A stretch of DNA of 64,000 nt from Arenicellales bacterium. Its GTDB lineage: Bacteria > Pseudomonadota > Gammaproteobacteria > Arenicellales > JAJDZL01. The position numbers and the translations under genes are program-made. Where the stretch lies: assembly GCA_965243305.1 (NCBI GenBank), contig CBDEUN010000003.1:150286-214285 (forward strand), written 5' to 3'. Positions 1,713-8,980 of this stretch are shown here, in pieces; the first letter of the stretch is position 1; every line of letters begins with the position of its first letter. The notes beneath the pieces were generated by a model. It worked only from the letters and a program-made list of their open reading frames with translations, made no database searches and was not told the origin of the DNA.

Positions 1713-1875
1713 TGTTTGCGCACACGGTTGCATCGATGAGTACATCGGGTAAAATGTCCCTCTGACGACAAAGCTTAAAATTTAAATAGAACTGGCTGCC
1801 GTCCTGCCGGCATGTTTCCTTAGAAGCATACCGCGGAATAATAATGAACAACATCATATTCGTAGGGGAATATTC

Positions 1876-2149
1876 ATGCGAGATCCTTCTCATCCGCCTG
1901 AGAAGCGCCGCACCCGCAGCACTTGGCACAACGATTTTTTCTCAGGCCATTTTCGAACACCCGAATCCGTCTCATCCCTGCTGAAGCTGGCCTTAAGCCC
2001 GGAGGAGCTTGAGCTGTTTGACCTTGACACCCTGCGGGTGGAATCCGGCAACCTGACCGATCCAGCAACTCTTCGGGGCATTCACTCCGAGCTTGTCGCA
2101 TCGGTGAGACTGAAAGACGGCGAACAGCTTACGGTCAGCGTCGTTGTGG
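1876..2149 (+). pseudogene. Rpn/YhgA-like (PD-(D/E)XK nuclease, transposase_31-like) gene, 5' part, interrupted
   Basis: HNDFF..HF / LELFDLDTLRVES N-terminus typical of Rpn proteins; AGGGGA RBS; joins in frame to 4440 through the TTGTGG direct repeat. Confidence 0.8.
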
Positions 2150-2169
2150 TTATGTTAACTTCAACATAA
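2150..2169. repeat. Palindromic recombinase core-type site TTATGTT-aacttc-AACATAA
   Basis: 7-bp inverted arms with a 6-bp spacer at the left junction; the motif recurs at 2193, 2250, 4352 and 4409. Confidence 0.6.
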
Positions 2170-2174
2170 CGATC

Positions 2175-2238
2175 AACATGTTGCGAAGTGGATTATGTTG
2201 CGAATGCTCGGTATCTATCTGATTTGCAAGCCATGAAC
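2175..2238 (+). repeat. Left 64-bp inverted repeat of the RIT-like element
   Basis: Exact reverse complement of 4371-4434. Confidence 0.95.
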
Positions 2239-2267
2239 AAAAAAAATCGCAACATAATATTCTTCAC

Positions 2268-3272
2268 TCAGAGTGAATTTAGAAAAGCCATCAGTTTGGT
2301 GTCTGGTTTCCATGGCCGCGCTGATTCCTGCACCAGGGTGTCGCAGATCTGCATGGCTTGGCTTTTCATTTCCCAGTCAATCTGTACGTAGACATTGGTG
2401 GTCTCAAGGCTGACGTGGCCCAGCCAGGCTCGGATGGTATTCAGATCAACACCGGCACGAAGCAGTTGGCAGGCGCTGGAATGTCGAATGGAATGTGGCG
2501 TTACCTTACGGTTCGCCAGCGCTGGAACGGCTGCCGCACGCCGTTCCACCAGCCTGTAGATTCCGTAGCGGGTATATGCCTGGCCAAGCTGGCTGGTGAA
2601 CACCGGATCCTCGGGACGTCTGTTCTGAATCAGTCCGGCCAGTGTTTTTTCAGTCAGTTGCCAAAGCGGACACTGTCTGGTCCTGCCGCCTTTGCCATGG
2701 AGGGTGACCAGCGCGTCGCGTCCGTTGCCCTGATCGAGCTTCAGACTGCCGACTTTGAGCTGTGTCACCTCCGACACCCGGGCGCCGGTGTTATACAGAA
2801 AGAGCAGCAGTGCGTACTCCATCTGACTTCTCTGAGATCGGGCATCGGGCTTGCCGATCAGGGCTTCCATCTCTTCCTTGTTCAGCCATGACAGGGGCAG
2901 CGGCTGCGTTTTCTTGGTCGCAATCGAGCGGATTGATGTGGCCCACTCGACAAACTGAGGCTCGCGGCTGCTGACGTAGCGGGCGAATGTGCGGATGGCG
3001 CTAAGTCTCAGATTGCGGGTCTGTACCGTACAACCCCGTTCGTTTTCGATGTGATTCAGAAATTCCAGAACCCGTGCACTCGCGATGTCCTGAATCAAAA
3101 GCCGTTCTATGGGTTTTCGAGCCTTGGTTTTGATGAAGGGCAGTAGCAGACGGAAGGTGTCGCGATAGCTGTTCCTGGTATTGACTGCAAGATTGCGTTC
3201 CGTCACAATGTATTCGGTAAAGAATCGCCGCAGCCAGGGCCCCAGTTTGGCTTGTTGATTGACGTCATTCAT
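2268..3272 (-). CDS. Tyrosine recombinase (RitC-like), apparently intact
   Basis: TGARVSE (R), GKGGR (K), HSIRH (HxxR), LGH and TNVY (Y). Start ATG 3272 overlaps the upstream stop (ATGAATGA). Confidence 0.9.
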   Translation of the reverse strand: MNDVNQQAKLGPWLRRFFTEYIVTERNLAVNTRNSYRDTFRLLLPFIKTKARKPIERLLIQDIASARVLEFLNHIENERGCTVQTRNLRLSAIRTFARYVSSREPQFVEWATSIRSIATKKTQPLPLSWLNKEEMEALIGKPDARSQRSQMEYALLLFLYNTGARVSEVTQLKVGSLKLDQGNGRDALVTLHGKGGRTRQCPLWQLTEKTLAGLIQNRRPEDPVFTSQLGQAYTRYGIYRLVERRAAAVPALANRKVTPHSIRHSSACQLLRAGVDLNTIRAWLGHVSLETTNVYVQIDWEMKSQAMQICDTLVQESARPWKPDTKLMAFLNSL

Positions 3273-3867
3273 GCCGGTCACCGTTGACATAGTGGTTGAA
3301 ACGGGAGGAGGCCTGCTGCAGCAGTTCAGGCGTCATGGACAGATACACCTGTGTCCCGTTGAGATTTTTGTGGCCCAGATAGGTTGACAGCAGTGGTAGC
3401 AGCTGCTGCACATCAGCTCCCTGCTGATACCAGGCGGTGAGTCGATGGACCGCGAACGTGTGCCTCAGACACTTTAGCATCGGACACTGGTATCCTGGTC
3501 CGTTTGCGCTGATTCCAGCAGCTTTGCGCAATCGGGCAAAGGCGAAGATCACGTTCGCCTGAGTCAGCGGCGATCCATCTCGATAGGCCAGAAAGGCTGA
3601 GTCTTCGCCGCTGGGAAATGGCCGTTGGCTGCGTACATTGATGTAGTAGGCTTTGAGCGCCTCATTCAAACGGGCGCTGACCGGTACCAGTCGGTTCTTG
3701 TAGAATTTGGTGTCTCGCACGGTGAGCACAGCATCGTCAAGATCAACATCTTCAAGGGTCAGAAAGCGAGCCTCTCTCACGCGCAGTCCGGTGCCGTAGA
3801 GCACCAGAAGAAACATGCGAAAGGTCTCGCCATCCAGCTTTGGACAATAGTTGAGACGATGAAACAA
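3265..3867 (-). pseudogene. Tyrosine recombinase (RitB-like), C-terminal catalytic half only
   Basis: YGTGLRVRE, TKFYKNRLVP, LRHTFAVHRL..WY, LSTYLGH...TQVY; N-terminal binding domain missing. Confidence 0.8.
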
Positions 3868-4295
3868 ATGCGGGTAACGTATCGATCAGACCAGCCACGT
3901 TCCCTGAAAGCATAACGTTTGAATGCCTGCAGTTCGGCATCAAACTTGTGGCGGGGCTTCGATTCAGCCAGCTGATCAATGAAACGCAGCCAGCGCAGCG
4001 AGTGATGAATGTAGCGGCGTTCATAGATGCCGGGGGACTGCGTACGGTTGCAACGTCTGATCGACTTCTGCCACTGCCTCGCCGCCTGCTCGACCTGATC
4101 ACGATGAACCAGGACACCAGCCTTTAAATCCAGACTGTTGACCAGATTCAACTGGTAATATGCGATGGAACGCAATGAATTGAGTTTGCCGCCGCACTCG
4201 GCCCAATAGGAAAGATAGCGAGTGCGTTCGTCCAGTAGCGGTGCCGACTGATACCTGTCAATGGCACGAGGACAGGAAAAGATTGTTGCGTACAT
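3777..4295 (-). pseudogene. Tyrosine recombinase (RitA-like), N-terminal half only
   Basis: AAAGGAG RBS then MYATIF...APLLDERTRYL...ERGWS, resembling RitA N-termini; no catalytic domain, runs out of frame into the RitB fragment near 3840. Confidence 0.7.
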
Positions 4296-4370
4296 GATAA
4301 GTTCTCCTTTGAAATGGAAAAACCACCATGATCGCACAAACCGTTTGAAAATTATGTTGACAAAATGTCA

Positions 4371-4434
4371 GTTCATGGCTTGCAAATCAGATAGATACCG
4401 AGCATTCGCAACATAATCCACTTCGCAACATGTT
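4371..4434 (-). repeat. Right 64-bp inverted repeat of the RIT-like element
   Basis: Exact reverse complement of 2175-2238. Confidence 0.95.
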
Positions 4435-5113
4435 TGTGGAACATAAAAGTCATCCGTACAGTCAGGTGATGTCGCAGATACTGTGGTATGTTGCCAGGCT
4501 GTATAAGGATGGTGCCAGGATTGTGCTGCCGATTCTGATATACCATGGTCGCAAGCCCTGGCGCAGGAAGAAGAGTTTTCATACGTTTCAGCATGCCAGC
4601 CTGCCGGGGGAGTTTATGGCGTGTTTTGGTCAGAGGCTGGTGGATTTTGAGGCGATTGAGTTGAGTCTGCGCGAACCGGGAATAGAGGGACGTCTGTCGG
4701 AGTTACCGCTGGTGGAGAGAGTGGTGTTGCGGGTGATGTCAGAGATATGGGAAGCCGATGCGAGCGACTATGCGCAGTGGATGGATGAGATTCGGGAGTT
4801 GCCGCACAGTCAGCAGCGCGAGTTGTCGGCGAGTTTGAGGGAGTATTTTGTGAATGTCAGCAAAGTGAATAAAATGACGGTTGTACGCGAGGTGAGGAAG
4901 ATGCACCCGGGAGATGAATATATGCAGTACGAATTGGAACTATTGGAAGATTTGACGAATGAGACGGTCGACTCTGCCGCTAAAAAAGGCCGAAATGCAG
5001 CGGTTATTGAATTTGCAAAACGGTTGATTCAGCTTGGTTCTTCGGATGAATTTATTCAAGCGGCCACGCTGTTGTCTGCGGAGGAAATTTCAAAAATCAA
5101 GAACGGCACCTGA
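4434..5113 (+). pseudogene. Rpn/YhgA-like gene, 3' part
   Basis: VEHKS...QILWY...LPILIYHG..PW and the C-terminal AKRLIQLG...IQAATLLSAEEI motif typical of Rpn proteins. Confidence 0.85.
4922..5113 (+). CDS. Putative internally translated small Rpn C-terminal protein (RpnS-like antitoxin), 63 aa
   Basis: In-frame ATG 4922 preceded by GGGAGA (4909-4914) with a 7-nt spacer; covers the C-terminal helical domain. Confidence 0.45.
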   Translation: MQYELELLEDLTNETVDSAAKKGRNAAVIEFAKRLIQLGSSDEFIQAATLLSAEEISKIKNGT

Positions 5114-5255
5114 TTGCAAGATGGGCGTCGTGCCAAAGTTTGGTTCTCTGGAAGTAGTTCGTTTTTGTCTGTAACAACGAAAATGGCGATTGAATGGTGC
5201 ATAGAATCAGACTACAACCCCGATGCAAATTGATAACAATCGGAAATTGAAGCCA

Positions 5256-5843
5256 TCACTCCAATAATCTTCTGACTTTCTTCCGAGAGACGCTGCGAAT
5301 TGGCTTACCATTAACCAAACTTAGCGGTGGATAAGGCATCTCCGGCAAGAAGCAGAAAAGTTCAACATCTACTTCAGCAACAGTCCACTCGAAGCCTGGA
5401 ATATTTTCAAAACGCTTGCCTGCAAATCGCTTGCGCTTCTCAAATTGATCATACGGTACCTCCGCTTCACACAGCAACACACAAACTTCTTCAACCGTTG
5501 AGGGAAAGACGTGAACTTCAACTGGCCTGACTGATGTAATTACACCAGTTACCGCCGCACCGGTAAGCTTTGGTGAGTACTCCGAAACCAAATCCATAAT
5601 TGACAACGCTGTTTCCAGGTACCGCTTATGCTCGACATCCCTGTTAGTTGTAAAAATCGATAACTGTTCCTCAAGAGCATTCTCAATTTCCAGGTTGGTT
5701 GGAATTGATCGATGTGTCGAAACACCGAGCCTTGAACAGGCTTTTTCCTTTGCTATTCGAAAATCGCGAACTCCCTCATCCGCCATGATGCGTGCAGCTT
5801 CATAGCGTAGCGAACGGCGCAAACGACTTGCTGACTTTGGCAC
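5256..5843 (-). CDS. Conserved hypothetical protein (nucleotidyltransferase-like fold)
   Basis: EAARIMADEG.RDF..AK.KA..RLG N-terminus and P.LTGAAV.G motif of a widespread proteobacterial family. Confidence 0.7.
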   Translation of the reverse strand: MPKSASRLRRSLRYEAARIMADEGVRDFRIAKEKACSRLGVSTHRSIPTNLEIENALEEQLSIFTTNRDVEHKRYLETALSIMDLVSEYSPKLTGAAVTGVITSVRPVEVHVFPSTVEEVCVLLCEAEVPYDQFEKRKRFAGKRFENIPGFEWTVAEVDVELFCFLPEMPYPPLSLVNGKPIRSVSRKKVRRLLE

Positions 5844-5863
5844 GATGAAACTGTGCAGGTGAG

Positions 5864-8311
5864 TTAAAAAAGTTGGCTTTCGGCTGATTCTTCAGCGGCA
5901 TCTGGTTGTTGAGATGCTTCAGGATTCAGACTGACGTGAGCAATATCCAGTAACGGCTGAGTTCCAGCAATAAATGTCTCCTGGAGTGCATCAGAGCTAT
6001 CTTCAGGTACAGCTTCTCCAGTATTTACATCGATAAACTGTGTGACTATGTTGTCTGGAGGCTCTAGAGGCGATTCCGGCACATTCTCCAACGCCGTTTT
6101 CATGTAGTCTATCCAGATCGGAAGTGCCAATCCGGAACCGTGTTCATTCCGACCCAAATCAGCTGGCTTATCAAATCCGACCCAGACAGTGGTGGCGATA
6201 TCAGCGTTGAAGCCGGAATACCACGCATCCTCAAAATCATTGGTGGTGCCGGTTTTTCCGGCAAGATCTGCACGATTGAGCGACAGGGCCCGACGTCCGG
6301 TTCCTTCCCGAACTACACCGCGTAAAAGATCGGTCATGATGTATGCATTAGCGCTGGAAATTACCCTTTCGGCGCGCTTGACAGGAGTTTGAGAAAGTGA
6401 CTCCAAATTCTCGTTTTCTGAATCCAATTGAAAAAGACAACCGCTGCAAACCTCTGTGGTCTTACCGCGCAATACAACCATGTCATGCTGGTCTTTAACA
6501 ATATCAATATAGTAAGGTTCAACGACATGACCGCCATTGGCAAACACTGCAAAGCCAGTAACTACATTCAACGGAGTTTCCTCCGCTGAACCCAGCGCGA
6601 GAGAAAACCCAATTGGAAGCGAAGTTCGATCAAATCCAAATTTTGTAATGTGATTGATGGTCGTATCTATACCCAAACCTCGTATCAGTCGAACCGAAAC
6701 CAGATTCAACGATCTTGCAAGCGCTTCCCGTAAGCGTGTTTCCCCCGTGAACTTGCCGCTATAGTTTTGCGGTCGCCACAATATTTCAGATTGTTGATCT
6801 TCGACCACAATTGGAGCACCGCTGATCAAACTTGCTGAAGTAAACCCGTTGTCAATTGCCGCAGAGTACACAAAAGGCTTGATTGAGGATCCCATCAGAC
6901 GCTTGCCCTGAGTCGCGCGATTGAACTTATCCAGGTAGTAGTCGAAACCACCCACCATCGCTAAAACGGCACCATTTTTAGGATCAATTGAGATGATCGC
7001 ACCGTTCACGTCGGGAATTTGCACCAACGTCCAGCCAGTGTCTTCAACCAGTCGTGCGAACACAATATCGCCGAGATCAAGTACATCGCTCGGAGTTTGA
7101 GGTTTTGGACCAAGCTGGCGAGCGGACTGATAGCGCCTCGCCCACTGCATATTCTCCCATTGAATGGTAATCGTCTCGAAAGACTTGTCTACTGCAGTTA
7201 CACGGTCCTCGTGCACCTCTGTAATGATTACGGGAATGATGTCTTGGCTGGGTTCAATATGTCGCAGTACATCGTAGATCTGTTCTGCTGTTCCCAGCTG
7301 ATCAAGATCCCAATTTCGAATTGGGCCGCGAAAACCATGACGCCGGTCGTATTGAATCAATCCCTCACGCAGACTCTGACTAGCCGCCAATTGATTTGTG
7401 GAAATGATTGTCGAATAGACGCTATACCCGTCTTCGTAAGCCGCCTCACCGAAACGATCAAACATCTCTCTTCTAATCTGTTCAGCGACATAAGGTGCTT
7501 TCAATTCCACTTCAGAAATGTGCAGTTCCGCTGTCAGTGATGATTCGACGTAGTCACTGAATTCGGTCAGAGAAACAAATCCCAAATCTCGCATGCGACC
7601 GAGTATGTAATCGCGCCTTGTTTTAGCATCTTTCGGATTGCTTAACGGATTAACACTAGATGGTGCTTTCGGCAATGCTGCAAGCATCGCATACTGAGGA
7701 ATTTCAAGTTCACCAAGCGGTTTGCCATAATAGACATTTGCCGCCGCACCGAATCCGTAAGCACGGTGTCCAAGAAATATTTTGTTTAGATACAGCTCCA
7801 GAATTTCATCTTTGGTCAGGTACTGCTCCAACCGAAGAGCAAGTAGAGCCTCCCGTGCTTTACGAAGATAAGTTCTCTCTTTTGTCAGGTAGTAATTCCG
7901 AGCAACCTGCATGGTAATCGTGCTGGCGCCTTGTGCTCTGCTGCCGGAAACGAAGTTGGCGTACATTGCACGCAACACACCGCGATAGTCAACACCGGCA
8001 TGCTGATAATATCGATCATCCTCCGCAGAGAGCACCGCGGCAATCAGTGCCGGTGGTGTGTCGGCAATCTTGATGGGAATTCGCCGCTGGTCACCAAATT
8101 CTCCGAGTAAAAGCCCGTCGCTCGAATAGATGCGAAGCGGCACCTTGAGTTGCAGAGTTTTGATTGTCTCTATGTCCGGTAATCCGGGCACTAATAACAT
8201 TACCACAATGACAACCACAGCCAGCGCCATCATGAACAGATTGCTGAACGTGCTCAAAGCAATGGAAATAACTCTGGCTGCGCCATGCCTTTTGTGCGCT
8301 TTCACGAACAT
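5864..8311 (-). CDS. mrcA: Penicillin-binding protein 1A
   Basis: Transglycosylase motifs EDDRYY.H.GVD, GASTITMQVARN, RKARE; transpeptidase SSIK, SLN, KTG. Confidence 0.95.
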   Translation of the reverse strand: MFVKAHKRHGAARVISIALSTFSNLFMMALAVVVIVVMLLVPGLPDIETIKTLQLKVPLRIYSSDGLLLGEFGDQRRIPIKIADTPPALIAAVLSAEDDRYYQHAGVDYRGVLRAMYANFVSGSRAQGASTITMQVARNYYLTKERTYLRKAREALLALRLEQYLTKDEILELYLNKIFLGHRAYGFGAAANVYYGKPLGELEIPQYAMLAALPKAPSSVNPLSNPKDAKTRRDYILGRMRDLGFVSLTEFSDYVESSLTAELHISEVELKAPYVAEQIRREMFDRFGEAAYEDGYSVYSTIISTNQLAASQSLREGLIQYDRRHGFRGPIRNWDLDQLGTAEQIYDVLRHIEPSQDIIPVIITEVHEDRVTAVDKSFETITIQWENMQWARRYQSARQLGPKPQTPSDVLDLGDIVFARLVEDTGWTLVQIPDVNGAIISIDPKNGAVLAMVGGFDYYLDKFNRATQGKRLMGSSIKPFVYSAAIDNGFTSASLISGAPIVVEDQQSEILWRPQNYSGKFTGETRLREALARSLNLVSVRLIRGLGIDTTINHITKFGFDRTSLPIGFSLALGSAEETPLNVVTGFAVFANGGHVVEPYYIDIVKDQHDMVVLRGKTTEVCSGCLFQLDSENENLESLSQTPVKRAERVISSANAYIMTDLLRGVVREGTGRRALSLNRADLAGKTGTTNDFEDAWYSGFNADIATTVWVGFDKPADLGRNEHGSGLALPIWIDYMKTALENVPESPLEPPDNIVTQFIDVNTGEAVPEDSSDALQETFIAGTQPLLDIAHVSLNPEASQQPDAAEESAESQLF

Positions 8312-8491
8312 CCACCTTACTCCGTTAAATTTGCCAAAGTTCTGACATGAATAATACTACGAAGTACCCGACCGATACCGATAGGGATTTAATTTTTTTT
8401 GGCAAAGATCATTCTTTAGAACATTGTAAAAATGGGATCAATGCGTCTAGAGTCACAAATTTTTAACACTGTGCTCTTCGGACTCTCGGTG

Positions 8492-8980
8492 TCAGTTCTT
8501 TTTTATGCGAAATTTCGAGTGACAAGCACGACAACCTTCTTCACCCATTTGCTTGACTGCTGTCGATATTTGAGCTTCATCTTCGGACGAGAATGCAGCT
8601 TTCAAACCCGTTCCAAGATCGACCAACCGCTCCGAAGCAGATGTAAAGTCATCCCATTTTTCCCAGATGATTGGCTTCGCCTGACTCTCTTTGTTGTGGT
8701 TCAATCCGGTATCTGGCGGAAAGTGTGATGGAAGTTCTGGGGCCAGTTCGATGATTCTGGTCGCTTTTTGGACTAAATCCGCTAAATCACCCTCACCCCG
8801 TTTCACAAACTTTCCGAACGCCTTCATGATGTCGCCAAGTTCATTCATGTAAACATGGCGTTTCTCGTAAACCGGACCACCGCCATGAGCATACGCTGAA
8901 TTACTCACAGCTAGAGAAATTAAAGCAACCAATATTGCAAAAATAGTTGATTTGAAATTTGAAGGTTTGTAATCACACAT
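8492..8980 (-). CDS. Cytochrome c'/c556-like class II cytochrome c
   Basis: Signal peptide (AYA/H), A.P.IW..WDDF motif and C-terminal CRACH heme motif. Confidence 0.85.
   Translation of the reverse strand: MCDYKPSNFKSTIFAILVALISLAVSNSAYAHGGGPVYEKRHVYMNELGDIMKAFGKFVKRGEGDLADLVQKATRIIELAPELPSHFPPDTGLNHNKESQAKPIIWEKWDDFTSASERLVDLGTGLKAAFSSEDEAQISTAVKQMGEEGCRACHSKFRIKKN

Follow-up and report, generated by a model that had tools for sequence, protein, structure and literature searches.

An rpn nuclease gene interrupted at its E-x-K motif by a RIT-derived insert, probably through recent site-specific insertion

INTRODUCTION

Does a recombinase-bearing insert inside the gene of a predicted toxic nuclease act as a gate on that gene, or has it put the gene out of action? 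The question is raised by a stretch of 64,000 nucleotides from a sponge-associated Arenicellales bacterium (hereafter the window), in which a gene of the Rpn (YhgA-like) family, between positions 1876 and 5113, is divided in two by an insert derived from a RIT element. Programmed excision elements, such as the skin element in sigK, the nifD element and the phage regulatory switches, split a gene by means of a recombinase insert whose exact excision restores it; different strains have them in the same gene, and their recombinase system remains functional. A preliminary description of the window had called the insert RIT-like, had placed it at the catalytic motif of the nuclease, and had offered two readings of the locus, a recent targeted insertion or a recombinase-gated on/off switch for a toxic defence protein. 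The results presented here make it likely that a recent, site-specific RIT insertion knocked out the toxic long form of Rpn and spared its C-terminal, antitoxin-like part.

Full-length Rpn proteins are toxic nucleases able to protect against phages, and small C-terminal proteins produced from internal starts (RpnS) block them (Zhong et al. 2023, PMC10400941). RIT elements consist of ritA, ritB and ritC with overlaps, and truncated combinations as well as insertions into radC and a transposase gene have been described (Van Houdt et al. 2012, PMC3414803). In its sections on mobility, the same paper states that RIT movement was awaiting experimental proof and that the ends were unclear; movement had still not been shown by experiment according to the corresponding part of a 2017 paper (PMC5737581), and a table published in 2023 lists RIT properties as not formally tested (PMC10214605).

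RESULTS

The rpn gene is divided within its predicted catalytic motif

The hexamer TTGTGG is present at both borders of the insert (2144–2149 and 4434–4439, read directly from the window). Joining 1876–2149 to 4440–5113 by script, which removes 2,290 bp, yielded 948 nt in frame, composed of 315 codons and a stop codon with no internal stop, exactly as the preliminary description had reported. The restored junction reads VVVEHKS, which is also the sequence of an intact paralog and of the uninterrupted orthologs in four related genomes, and the break point lies after base 1 of the Glu codon of the E-H-K motif. As they now stand, the two sides form separate open reading frames (ORFs), one of 97 codons from 1876 and one of 227 codons ending at 5113, the latter starting at an ATG at 4430 within the end of the element.

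Both halves exceed the Pfam cut-off of PF04754 (21 bits), with 26.4 bits over profile positions 3–71 and 25.5 bits over positions 76–195, and the two sets of profile coordinates abut. Given that the split runs across a contiguous Rpn profile and that the relatives are unbroken, the arrangement is not due to chance. With the NCBIfam models, the first half gave weak matches of the RpnA type, and the second half matched the tail of TIGR01784 (30.7 bits, under the whole-protein cut-off of 52.1). In nine aligned homologs, the E and K of the E-x-K motif are invariant, while the middle residue is H in eight. The read-through protein, S-E-L...V-V-V-E-H-K, fits the PD-(D/E)XK pattern, with an acidic residue located about 25 residues before E-x-K, and these residues are predicted to be catalytic from the superfamily motif. 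The earlier placement of the break at the catalytic motif of an Rpn gene is thus borne out by the Pfam matches of both halves and by the invariant E and K.

Similar to the Rpn/RpnS proteins of PMC10400941, the read-through product combines an N-terminal PF04754 domain of the PD-(D/E)XK type, bearing E-x-K, with a variable C-terminal tail that includes a candidate internal start. In contrast to the proteins treated in the relevant sections of that paper, the gene here is interrupted and is known from sequence alone. The candidate internal ORF encodes 70 residues and is unaffected by the insertion, and its Met start coincides with the start of three stand-alone cassettes found beside the paralog. 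Since residues 1–91 are severed from the remainder, no full-length Rpn nuclease can be made. The predicted functional consequence is therefore a knock-out of a potentially toxic full-length Rpn, with the RpnS-like frame probably left intact.

The same genome contains four other PF04754 genes. An intact Rpn paralog of 331 aa, with about 85% DNA identity, reads ...LTVSVVVEHKSYPY... without a break at the corresponding site and encodes VVVEHKS. The three stand-alone cassettes lie in tandem downstream of this paralog, at G000:C2:1161831–1162785 (L007 1–1005). Their products, with lengths of 78, 82 and 94 aa, each correspond to an Rpn C-terminal tail that begins with the same Met, and one of them has four GYIQ repeats. 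PMC10400941 describes similar small genes of the RpnS-like type, as well as repeats of four residues.

Orthologs in three genomes of the same genus (G029, G013 and G030) are uninterrupted, and their surroundings are collinear with those in the window over about 20 kb, with an identity of about 90%. As compared to these three, the present genome has two additions in this region, an element of the IS1380 insertion sequence (IS) family that ends near 1712–1724 and the 2,290-bp insert. The closest rpn copy is that of a fourth genome, G002, in which TTGTGG occurs exactly once at the site. The insert is thus found in none of the four related genomes, three of which are syntenic.

The insert is a deletion derivative of a RIT

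An intact trio in a genome of the same genus (L032) encodes proteins of 416, 316 and 331 aa, with gene overlaps of 4 and 8 bp, and the same trio is also present in an annotated public plasmid record. The ORFs of the insert match this trio collinearly: that of 186 aa corresponds to RitA residues 1–149 (40% identity), that of 200 aa to RitB residues 127–316 (56–59%), and that of 340 aa to the whole of RitC (65%). The 186-aa ORF, at 3777–4337, continues out of frame from ritA into ritB sequence. RitC keeps the conserved R, H-x-x-R, H and Y positions, which are invariant columns of the alignment, and the Rit proteins score best against the XerC/XerD models. The terminal inverted repeats, each of 88 nt, are 90% complementary and hold five of the seven ATGTTGCG motifs of the window.

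Contigs from public sequencing runs show the form before the deletion. One 3,362-nt metagenome contig of X10 consists of 2209–3854, 1,170 other letters and 3855–4400, with a single further letter that differs, while a contig of X7 (2661–3891) spans 3854|3855 as in the window. In X5, contigs end at 3854|3855, and one of them continues into unlike sequence. The observed loss of 1,170 bp compares with about 1,175 bp expected from the protein matches.

Judged by its gene content, the insert is a deletion derivative of a RIT, neither a pair nor a trio. It shares with the RITs of PMC3414803 the gene order, the short overlaps in its intact relatives, the Xer-like tyrosine recombinases, the terminal inverted repeats, a palindrome at a single end and, for the ancestral form, a length of about 3.46 kb. 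It differs from those described in the pertinent sections of that paper, which require three adjacent overlapping genes, in having one whole gene, ritC, and partial ritA and ritB joined out of frame. The label RIT-like can therefore be kept in the sense of RIT-derived, not in the sense of a recombinase trio. A bipartite module (BIM) element was rejected, because the second gene of a BIM is not a recombinase in the description given in PMC3414803, and the extra ORFs here are remnants of ritA and ritB.

The insert is single copy. A whole-genome tblastn search with RitA, RitB and RitC found no other RIT in this genome and just two single recombinase genes with about 27% identity. The ORF list of the element includes no excisionase-like gene. 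The copy in the window is most likely immobile in this genome, since its RitA lacks the catalytic domain, its RitB lacks the N-terminal domain, and no other RIT is available as a helper. In GInts, all four genes are needed for recombination (PMC10214605), which argues, by analogy only, that the present remnant would be disabled. A single-protein search of genome contigs yielded no close relatives of the RitC in the window, and metagenome contigs contained just relatives with 27–45% identity, so that these searches added no other insertion site for this exact element.

Interrupted, uninterrupted and frameshifted forms circulate

Ten public runs contain half or more of the sampled words of the stretch. 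Their data are contigs, which lose rare variants, so that excision at low frequency or circles would not be visible in them. A 442-nt contig of X5, with 0 other letters, follows 1732–2143 and then continues from 4434, omitting exactly 2,290 bp, with six letters fitting either side. This contig represents the same gene without the insert, as several positions of that stretch distinguish it from the paralog. A protein from another source, P0010 (242 aa, cut at the contig end), also crosses the junction: its first 18 residues are the end of the first half, and its last 224 are the second half. P0015 comprises the first half and 40 residues of the second, followed by the +2 frame. P0014 consists of the first half alone. 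Other assemblies also contain the products of the split gene: the 227-aa one, with its start in the end of the element, on a 4,115-nt contig, and the 97-aa one on two contigs. Contig cover is missing, among other parts, for the terminal palindrome (E) and the repeats in X5 and for the flanks of the gene in X10, and these gaps are not taken to indicate absence. No circle junction is listed among the contigs of the public runs, which could hardly show one.

At least three states of one rpn gene therefore circulate, namely whole, split by the RIT and frameshifted, and the natural population is polymorphic for this insertion, which is of recent date. In agreement with this, the word recent in the preliminary description is supported by the syntenic relatives that lack the insert and by the uninterrupted forms with identical flanks in X5, P0010 and P0015. 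The same description had taken a lack of empty-site molecules as evidence against its proposal; such a site does exist in X5, P0010 and P0015, and it may be the ancestral allele as well as a product of excision.

The contig that encodes P0015 and P0008 (9,306 nt, another assembly) bears a RIT-free rpn gene frameshifted after residue 131 (91 + 40), with a separate C-terminal ORF whose tail resembles that of the paralog. The frameshift in P0015 is either an independent inactivation or an assembly error. In X7, a joint from 1713 to 4832, with 22 letters on the shorter side, was set aside as it looks like an IS copy beside another sequence resembling the Rpn tail.

A probable common plan of RIT ends

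To describe the ends of RITs, terminal repeats were searched in 39 long loci and three added copies. Seventeen were left out (12 without a repeat pair and five with spans outside 3.3–4.0 kb), and 25 were kept. An inverted repeat of the 7-6-7 type (at most one mismatch) lies next to exactly one repeat arm in 23 of these, or in 22 after that of L061 was judged by eye to be due to chance, as compared to a chance rate of 0.073 for any such palindrome in a 48-mer. The palindrome is on the ritA side in nine of the 22 RITs, on the ritC side in 13 and on both sides in none. Its arms share WWATGTK...MACATWW, which also recurs inside the terminal repeats. Identical copies in one genome have the palindrome on opposite sides (L032 and L039, L058 and L066, L099 and L100), and identical copies have variable inner 6-mers.

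A second exact before/after pair was obtained from L033 (G025), in which a complete RIT of another subfamily, at 3493–6938, occupies the ritB gene of a RIT that is uninterrupted in L032; the host RIT shares 99% identity with one in G022. The empty site has a single TCGTCA, the 3,446-bp insert is flanked by this 6-mer on each side, and an inverted copy of it separates the palindrome from the repeat. From the two pairs, we infer that a 6-bp repeat at the borders is a regular RIT feature. Because the core of 6 bp is shared, excision would restore the target exactly. No empty sites were found for other RIT copies when the flanks of L032, L039 and L033 were searched in five genomes each. A degenerate target pattern matched once, in G025, which is suggestive only. 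The sequence AACATAA by the right border was considered as a required half-site and rejected, as it is not beside the far end of eight other RITs (by eye) or of the second exact pair.

These observations suggest how the insertion may have arisen. The RIT would have integrated in rpn, within the Glu codon of the E-x-K catalytic motif, by site-specific recombination over a 6-bp core, which would leave one TTGTGG at each border; if these two copies recombined, rpn would be restored exactly. The crossover presumably lies within the 6 bp. The filled site would have the layout target, 6-mer, palindrome, inverted 6-mer, repeat, genes, repeat, 6-mer, target, while in the circular form two inverted arm-6-arm cores would share the palindrome, the 6 bp serving as the central strand-exchange region. 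Depending on the core used, the palindrome could come to lie on one side of the genes or on the other, and an inversion between the repeats would explain its side equally well.

Several side observations concern RIT copies elsewhere. In L043 (G025), an intergenic stretch at about 1500–1545 has a tandem CTACCGATT followed by GAAATTTCCC, similar to the joined flanks of three L032-type copies, and is a candidate unoccupied target. In L039 (G022), whose RIT copy is identical to that of L032, ritC is interrupted at two places, by stretches of about 1.8 kb (4995–6793) and 1.3 kb (7413–8714) that look like IS insertions, with overlaps of 7 and 5 bp between the flanking matches. Long inverted duplications of 535–830 nt flank some RITs (L072, L073, L075 and L080). 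In L133, a Sagittula plasmid record, a trio lies between two inverted genes annotated as "toprim domain-containing protein" (1165–2220 and 5495–6547).

Table 1. Features of the interrupted rpn gene and of its insert, in coordinates of the window
Feature	Position	Strand	Evidence or remark
rpn N-terminal part: codons 1–91 and first base of the Glu codon	1876..2149	+	PF04754, 26.4 bits; identical to P0014
Left copy of the TTGTGG repeat; putative crossover (central) region	2144..2149		Once in the uninterrupted gene of G002; joint in X5 with 6 letters fitting either side
Terminal 7-6-7 palindrome E (TTATGTT-N6-AACATAA)	2150..2169		Absent from the other end of the element
Inner 6-mer, CGATCA (opposite strand TGATCG), separating E from the inverted repeat	2170..2175
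Left terminal inverted repeat, 88 nt	2175..2262		ATGTTGCG motifs at 2178 and 2195; an inverted one at 2248
ritC, whole, 340 aa, predicted tyrosine recombinase	2268..3290	-	PF00589, 92.8 bits; Xer-like; 65% to RitC of the intact trio
ritB remnant, C-terminal catalytic domain only (RitB residues 127–316)	3268..3854	-	Out of frame with the ritA remnant
Junction of the 1,170-bp internal deletion	3854..3855		Contigs of X10 compared with X7
ritA remnant, N-terminal, about 161 codons, no catalytic domain	3855..4337	-	Matches RitA residues 1–149 at 40%
Right terminal inverted repeat, 88 nt	4347..4434
Right copy of the TTGTGG repeat	4434..4439
rpn C-terminal part, 224 codons from the Glu codon	4439..5113	+	PF04754, 25.5 bits; TIGR01784 tail; identical to P0010 residues 19–242
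Candidate internal small ORF, 70 aa, like an RpnS-type C-terminal tail	4901..5113	+	ATG after GAGG/AGGA (Shine-Dalgarno-like)

No RIT lies in an Rpn gene at the other places scanned

A profile search with RitC relatives recovered 80 loci from genome contigs of many phyla. Together with 10 other loci, these were scanned in six frames (13,621 ORFs of at least 35 aa) with a hidden Markov model (HMM) built from nine Rpn homologs, and the 90 loci correspond to about 85 distinct places after removal of duplicates. No RIT was found inside an Rpn gene at any of these roughly 85 places. The sole Rpn-like match is a 59-aa fragment at about 0.9 kb from a RIT, in one place listed twice (L034 and L086).

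The RitC relatives of the survey (L053–L132), with 45–64% identity, are present in metagenome-assembled genomes of many phyla, several of whose titles name sponge-associated lineages. This suggests that RITs are spread widely among sponge-associated communities.

DISCUSSION

Insertion, switch or movement between paralogs

The reading that we consider likely, a recent knock-out by insertion, is challenged by several observations. RitC, both 88-nt repeats and a complete core-like site beside E are intact, and excision by RitC alone, or together with a full-length copy in a co-resident strain, is conceivable. X5 has both the empty site and element sequence, which would be compatible with excision as well. 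The 6-mers pose a further difficulty. In other RITs, the two border 6-mers and the inner one agree or differ by one base, whereas in the window both borders are TTGTGG and the inner 6-mer is TGATCG, and one-step integration with a mismatched core would not predict this pattern. In the 3.9-Mb genome, TGATCG precedes AACATAA at a single place (0.12 expected), which is the corresponding E-x-K codon of a further Rpn paralog, itself intact (L006). Five other distinct 6-mers occupy the E-x-K position among Rpn homologs. The probability of this coincidence by chance, estimated at about 0.001–0.003, was judged post hoc. The coincidence hints at real targeting of Rpn, and the Rpn site of L006 may be the cognate or the previous site of this RIT lineage. 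The only ortholog of L006 that was found, in G013, is uninterrupted. Consequently, the word targeted in the preliminary description is plausible only in a limited sense, in that RITs recombine across a 6-bp core and that a single coincidence may connect them with the E-x-K site of Rpn.

The same coincidence is the starting point for a more active scheme, in which a RIT lineage specialised for the E-x-K site cuts and pastes itself between Rpn paralogs, the empty sites are excision products, the inner 6-mer is the trace of a former stay in another paralog, and the deleted copy was moved in trans by full-length copies. Besides the unique match at the homologous codon of L006, which is itself intact, the co-occurrence of a full-length form with the empty site in X5 (the loose end behind 3854) and the variable inner 6-mers of identical RIT copies would fit this scheme. 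However, the match was noticed after the fact, the sole ortholog of the paralog carries no insert, the full-length RIT of X10 is present without the flanks of this gene, and the contigs contain no circle junction. The empty sites are also accounted for more simply as the ancestral allele. We consider active cut-and-paste unlikely. The broader proposal that a RIT lineage specialised for the Rpn E-x-K site moves between paralogs by exact excision and integration dependent on the 6-bp core, with TGATCG as a trace of the site in the other paralog or as the core that is cognate to it, appears to us unlikely as well. If true, it would amount to a reversible off-switch, at the level of the population, for toxic Rpn nucleases in sponge symbionts.

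The programmed switch envisaged in the preliminary description would have the element kept as a gate, with a regulated and precise excision that restores the toxic nuclease when needed. Excision across TTGTGG would indeed be seamless, neither half of rpn has decayed, an empty-site allele exists, and ritC and both inverted repeats are intact. The element nevertheless appears to lack the means expected of a switch, as RitA is without its catalytic domain, RitB is without its N-terminal domain, there is no other RIT in the genome, and no excisionase-like gene is present. Nor is it maintained at the site: the insert is in none of the four related genomes, no RIT occupies an Rpn gene among the 90 loci scanned, and the frameshift in a sister allele is more in keeping with loss than with gating. 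A gating function is thus improbable at this locus. Finally, a mis-join at a repeat could have created an insertion that exists in no real cell, and it is true that the public-run contigs break at the inverted repeats and that no listed contig bridges either border. Yet the genome is assembled in three contigs with the insert in single copy, the 227-aa and 97-aa products of the split gene are present in other assemblies, and ten runs contain half or more of the sampled words of the stretch. An assembly artefact can hardly be credited in view of these data. A recent site-specific insertion that disabled the long form of Rpn therefore remains the explanation that we favour.

Relation to known systems and significance

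Each core of the RIT end resembles the 11-6-11 layout of dif/XerCD sites, in which two arms enclose a central region of 6 bp (Carnoy and Roten 2009, PMC2731167). At 9/10 positions, the outer arm of E (TTATGTTAAC) agrees with the XerD-side 11-mer given in that paper for many gammaproteobacteria. In contrast to the dif sites in the sections of that paper on site structure, the other arm is weakly alike, and two inverted cores share a palindrome. A dif site of the host was not found with a strict pattern, and one weak match was obtained when a substitution was permitted. SE elements, GInts and Tn554 are likewise similar in having several tyrosine recombinases, 6 bp at the joints and target specificity, but they carry a fourth gene (of the Srap, GinD or TnpC type) and cargo, whereas RITs have three recombinases only, according to the corresponding part of PMC10214605.

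The exact empty and filled alleles and the full-length sister copy found here go beyond what is reported in the sections of PMC3414803 on RIT structure and insertion sites. The locus thereby provides a natural before/after pair with identical flanks, together with a full-length sister copy and a deletion derivative, and with the second exact pair it leads to a concrete, testable rule for RIT ends. This RIT lineage may favour Rpn genes, which we regard as a lead.

A gene-interrupting insertion is otherwise an ordinary kind of event. Unlike the elements of the skin and nifD type, the present insert is not conserved across strains, and its recombinase set is incomplete. One rpn gene appears to have been lost by two independent routes, RIT insertion and frameshift, in a genome with 55 IS copies, and such a loss fits the decay of, or counter-selection against, a toxic defence gene.

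The IS copies belong to the IS1380-family element that also borders the locus. It covers 1–1712 of the window, with a transposase ORF at 15–1466 (NF033539, 286.7 bits), and lies about 160 bp upstream of the rpn start, a spot at which it is missing in the three syntenic relatives. The 55 near-full-length copies in the genome are 99.9–100% identical, and the contig depth of the element in the public runs is 200–500.

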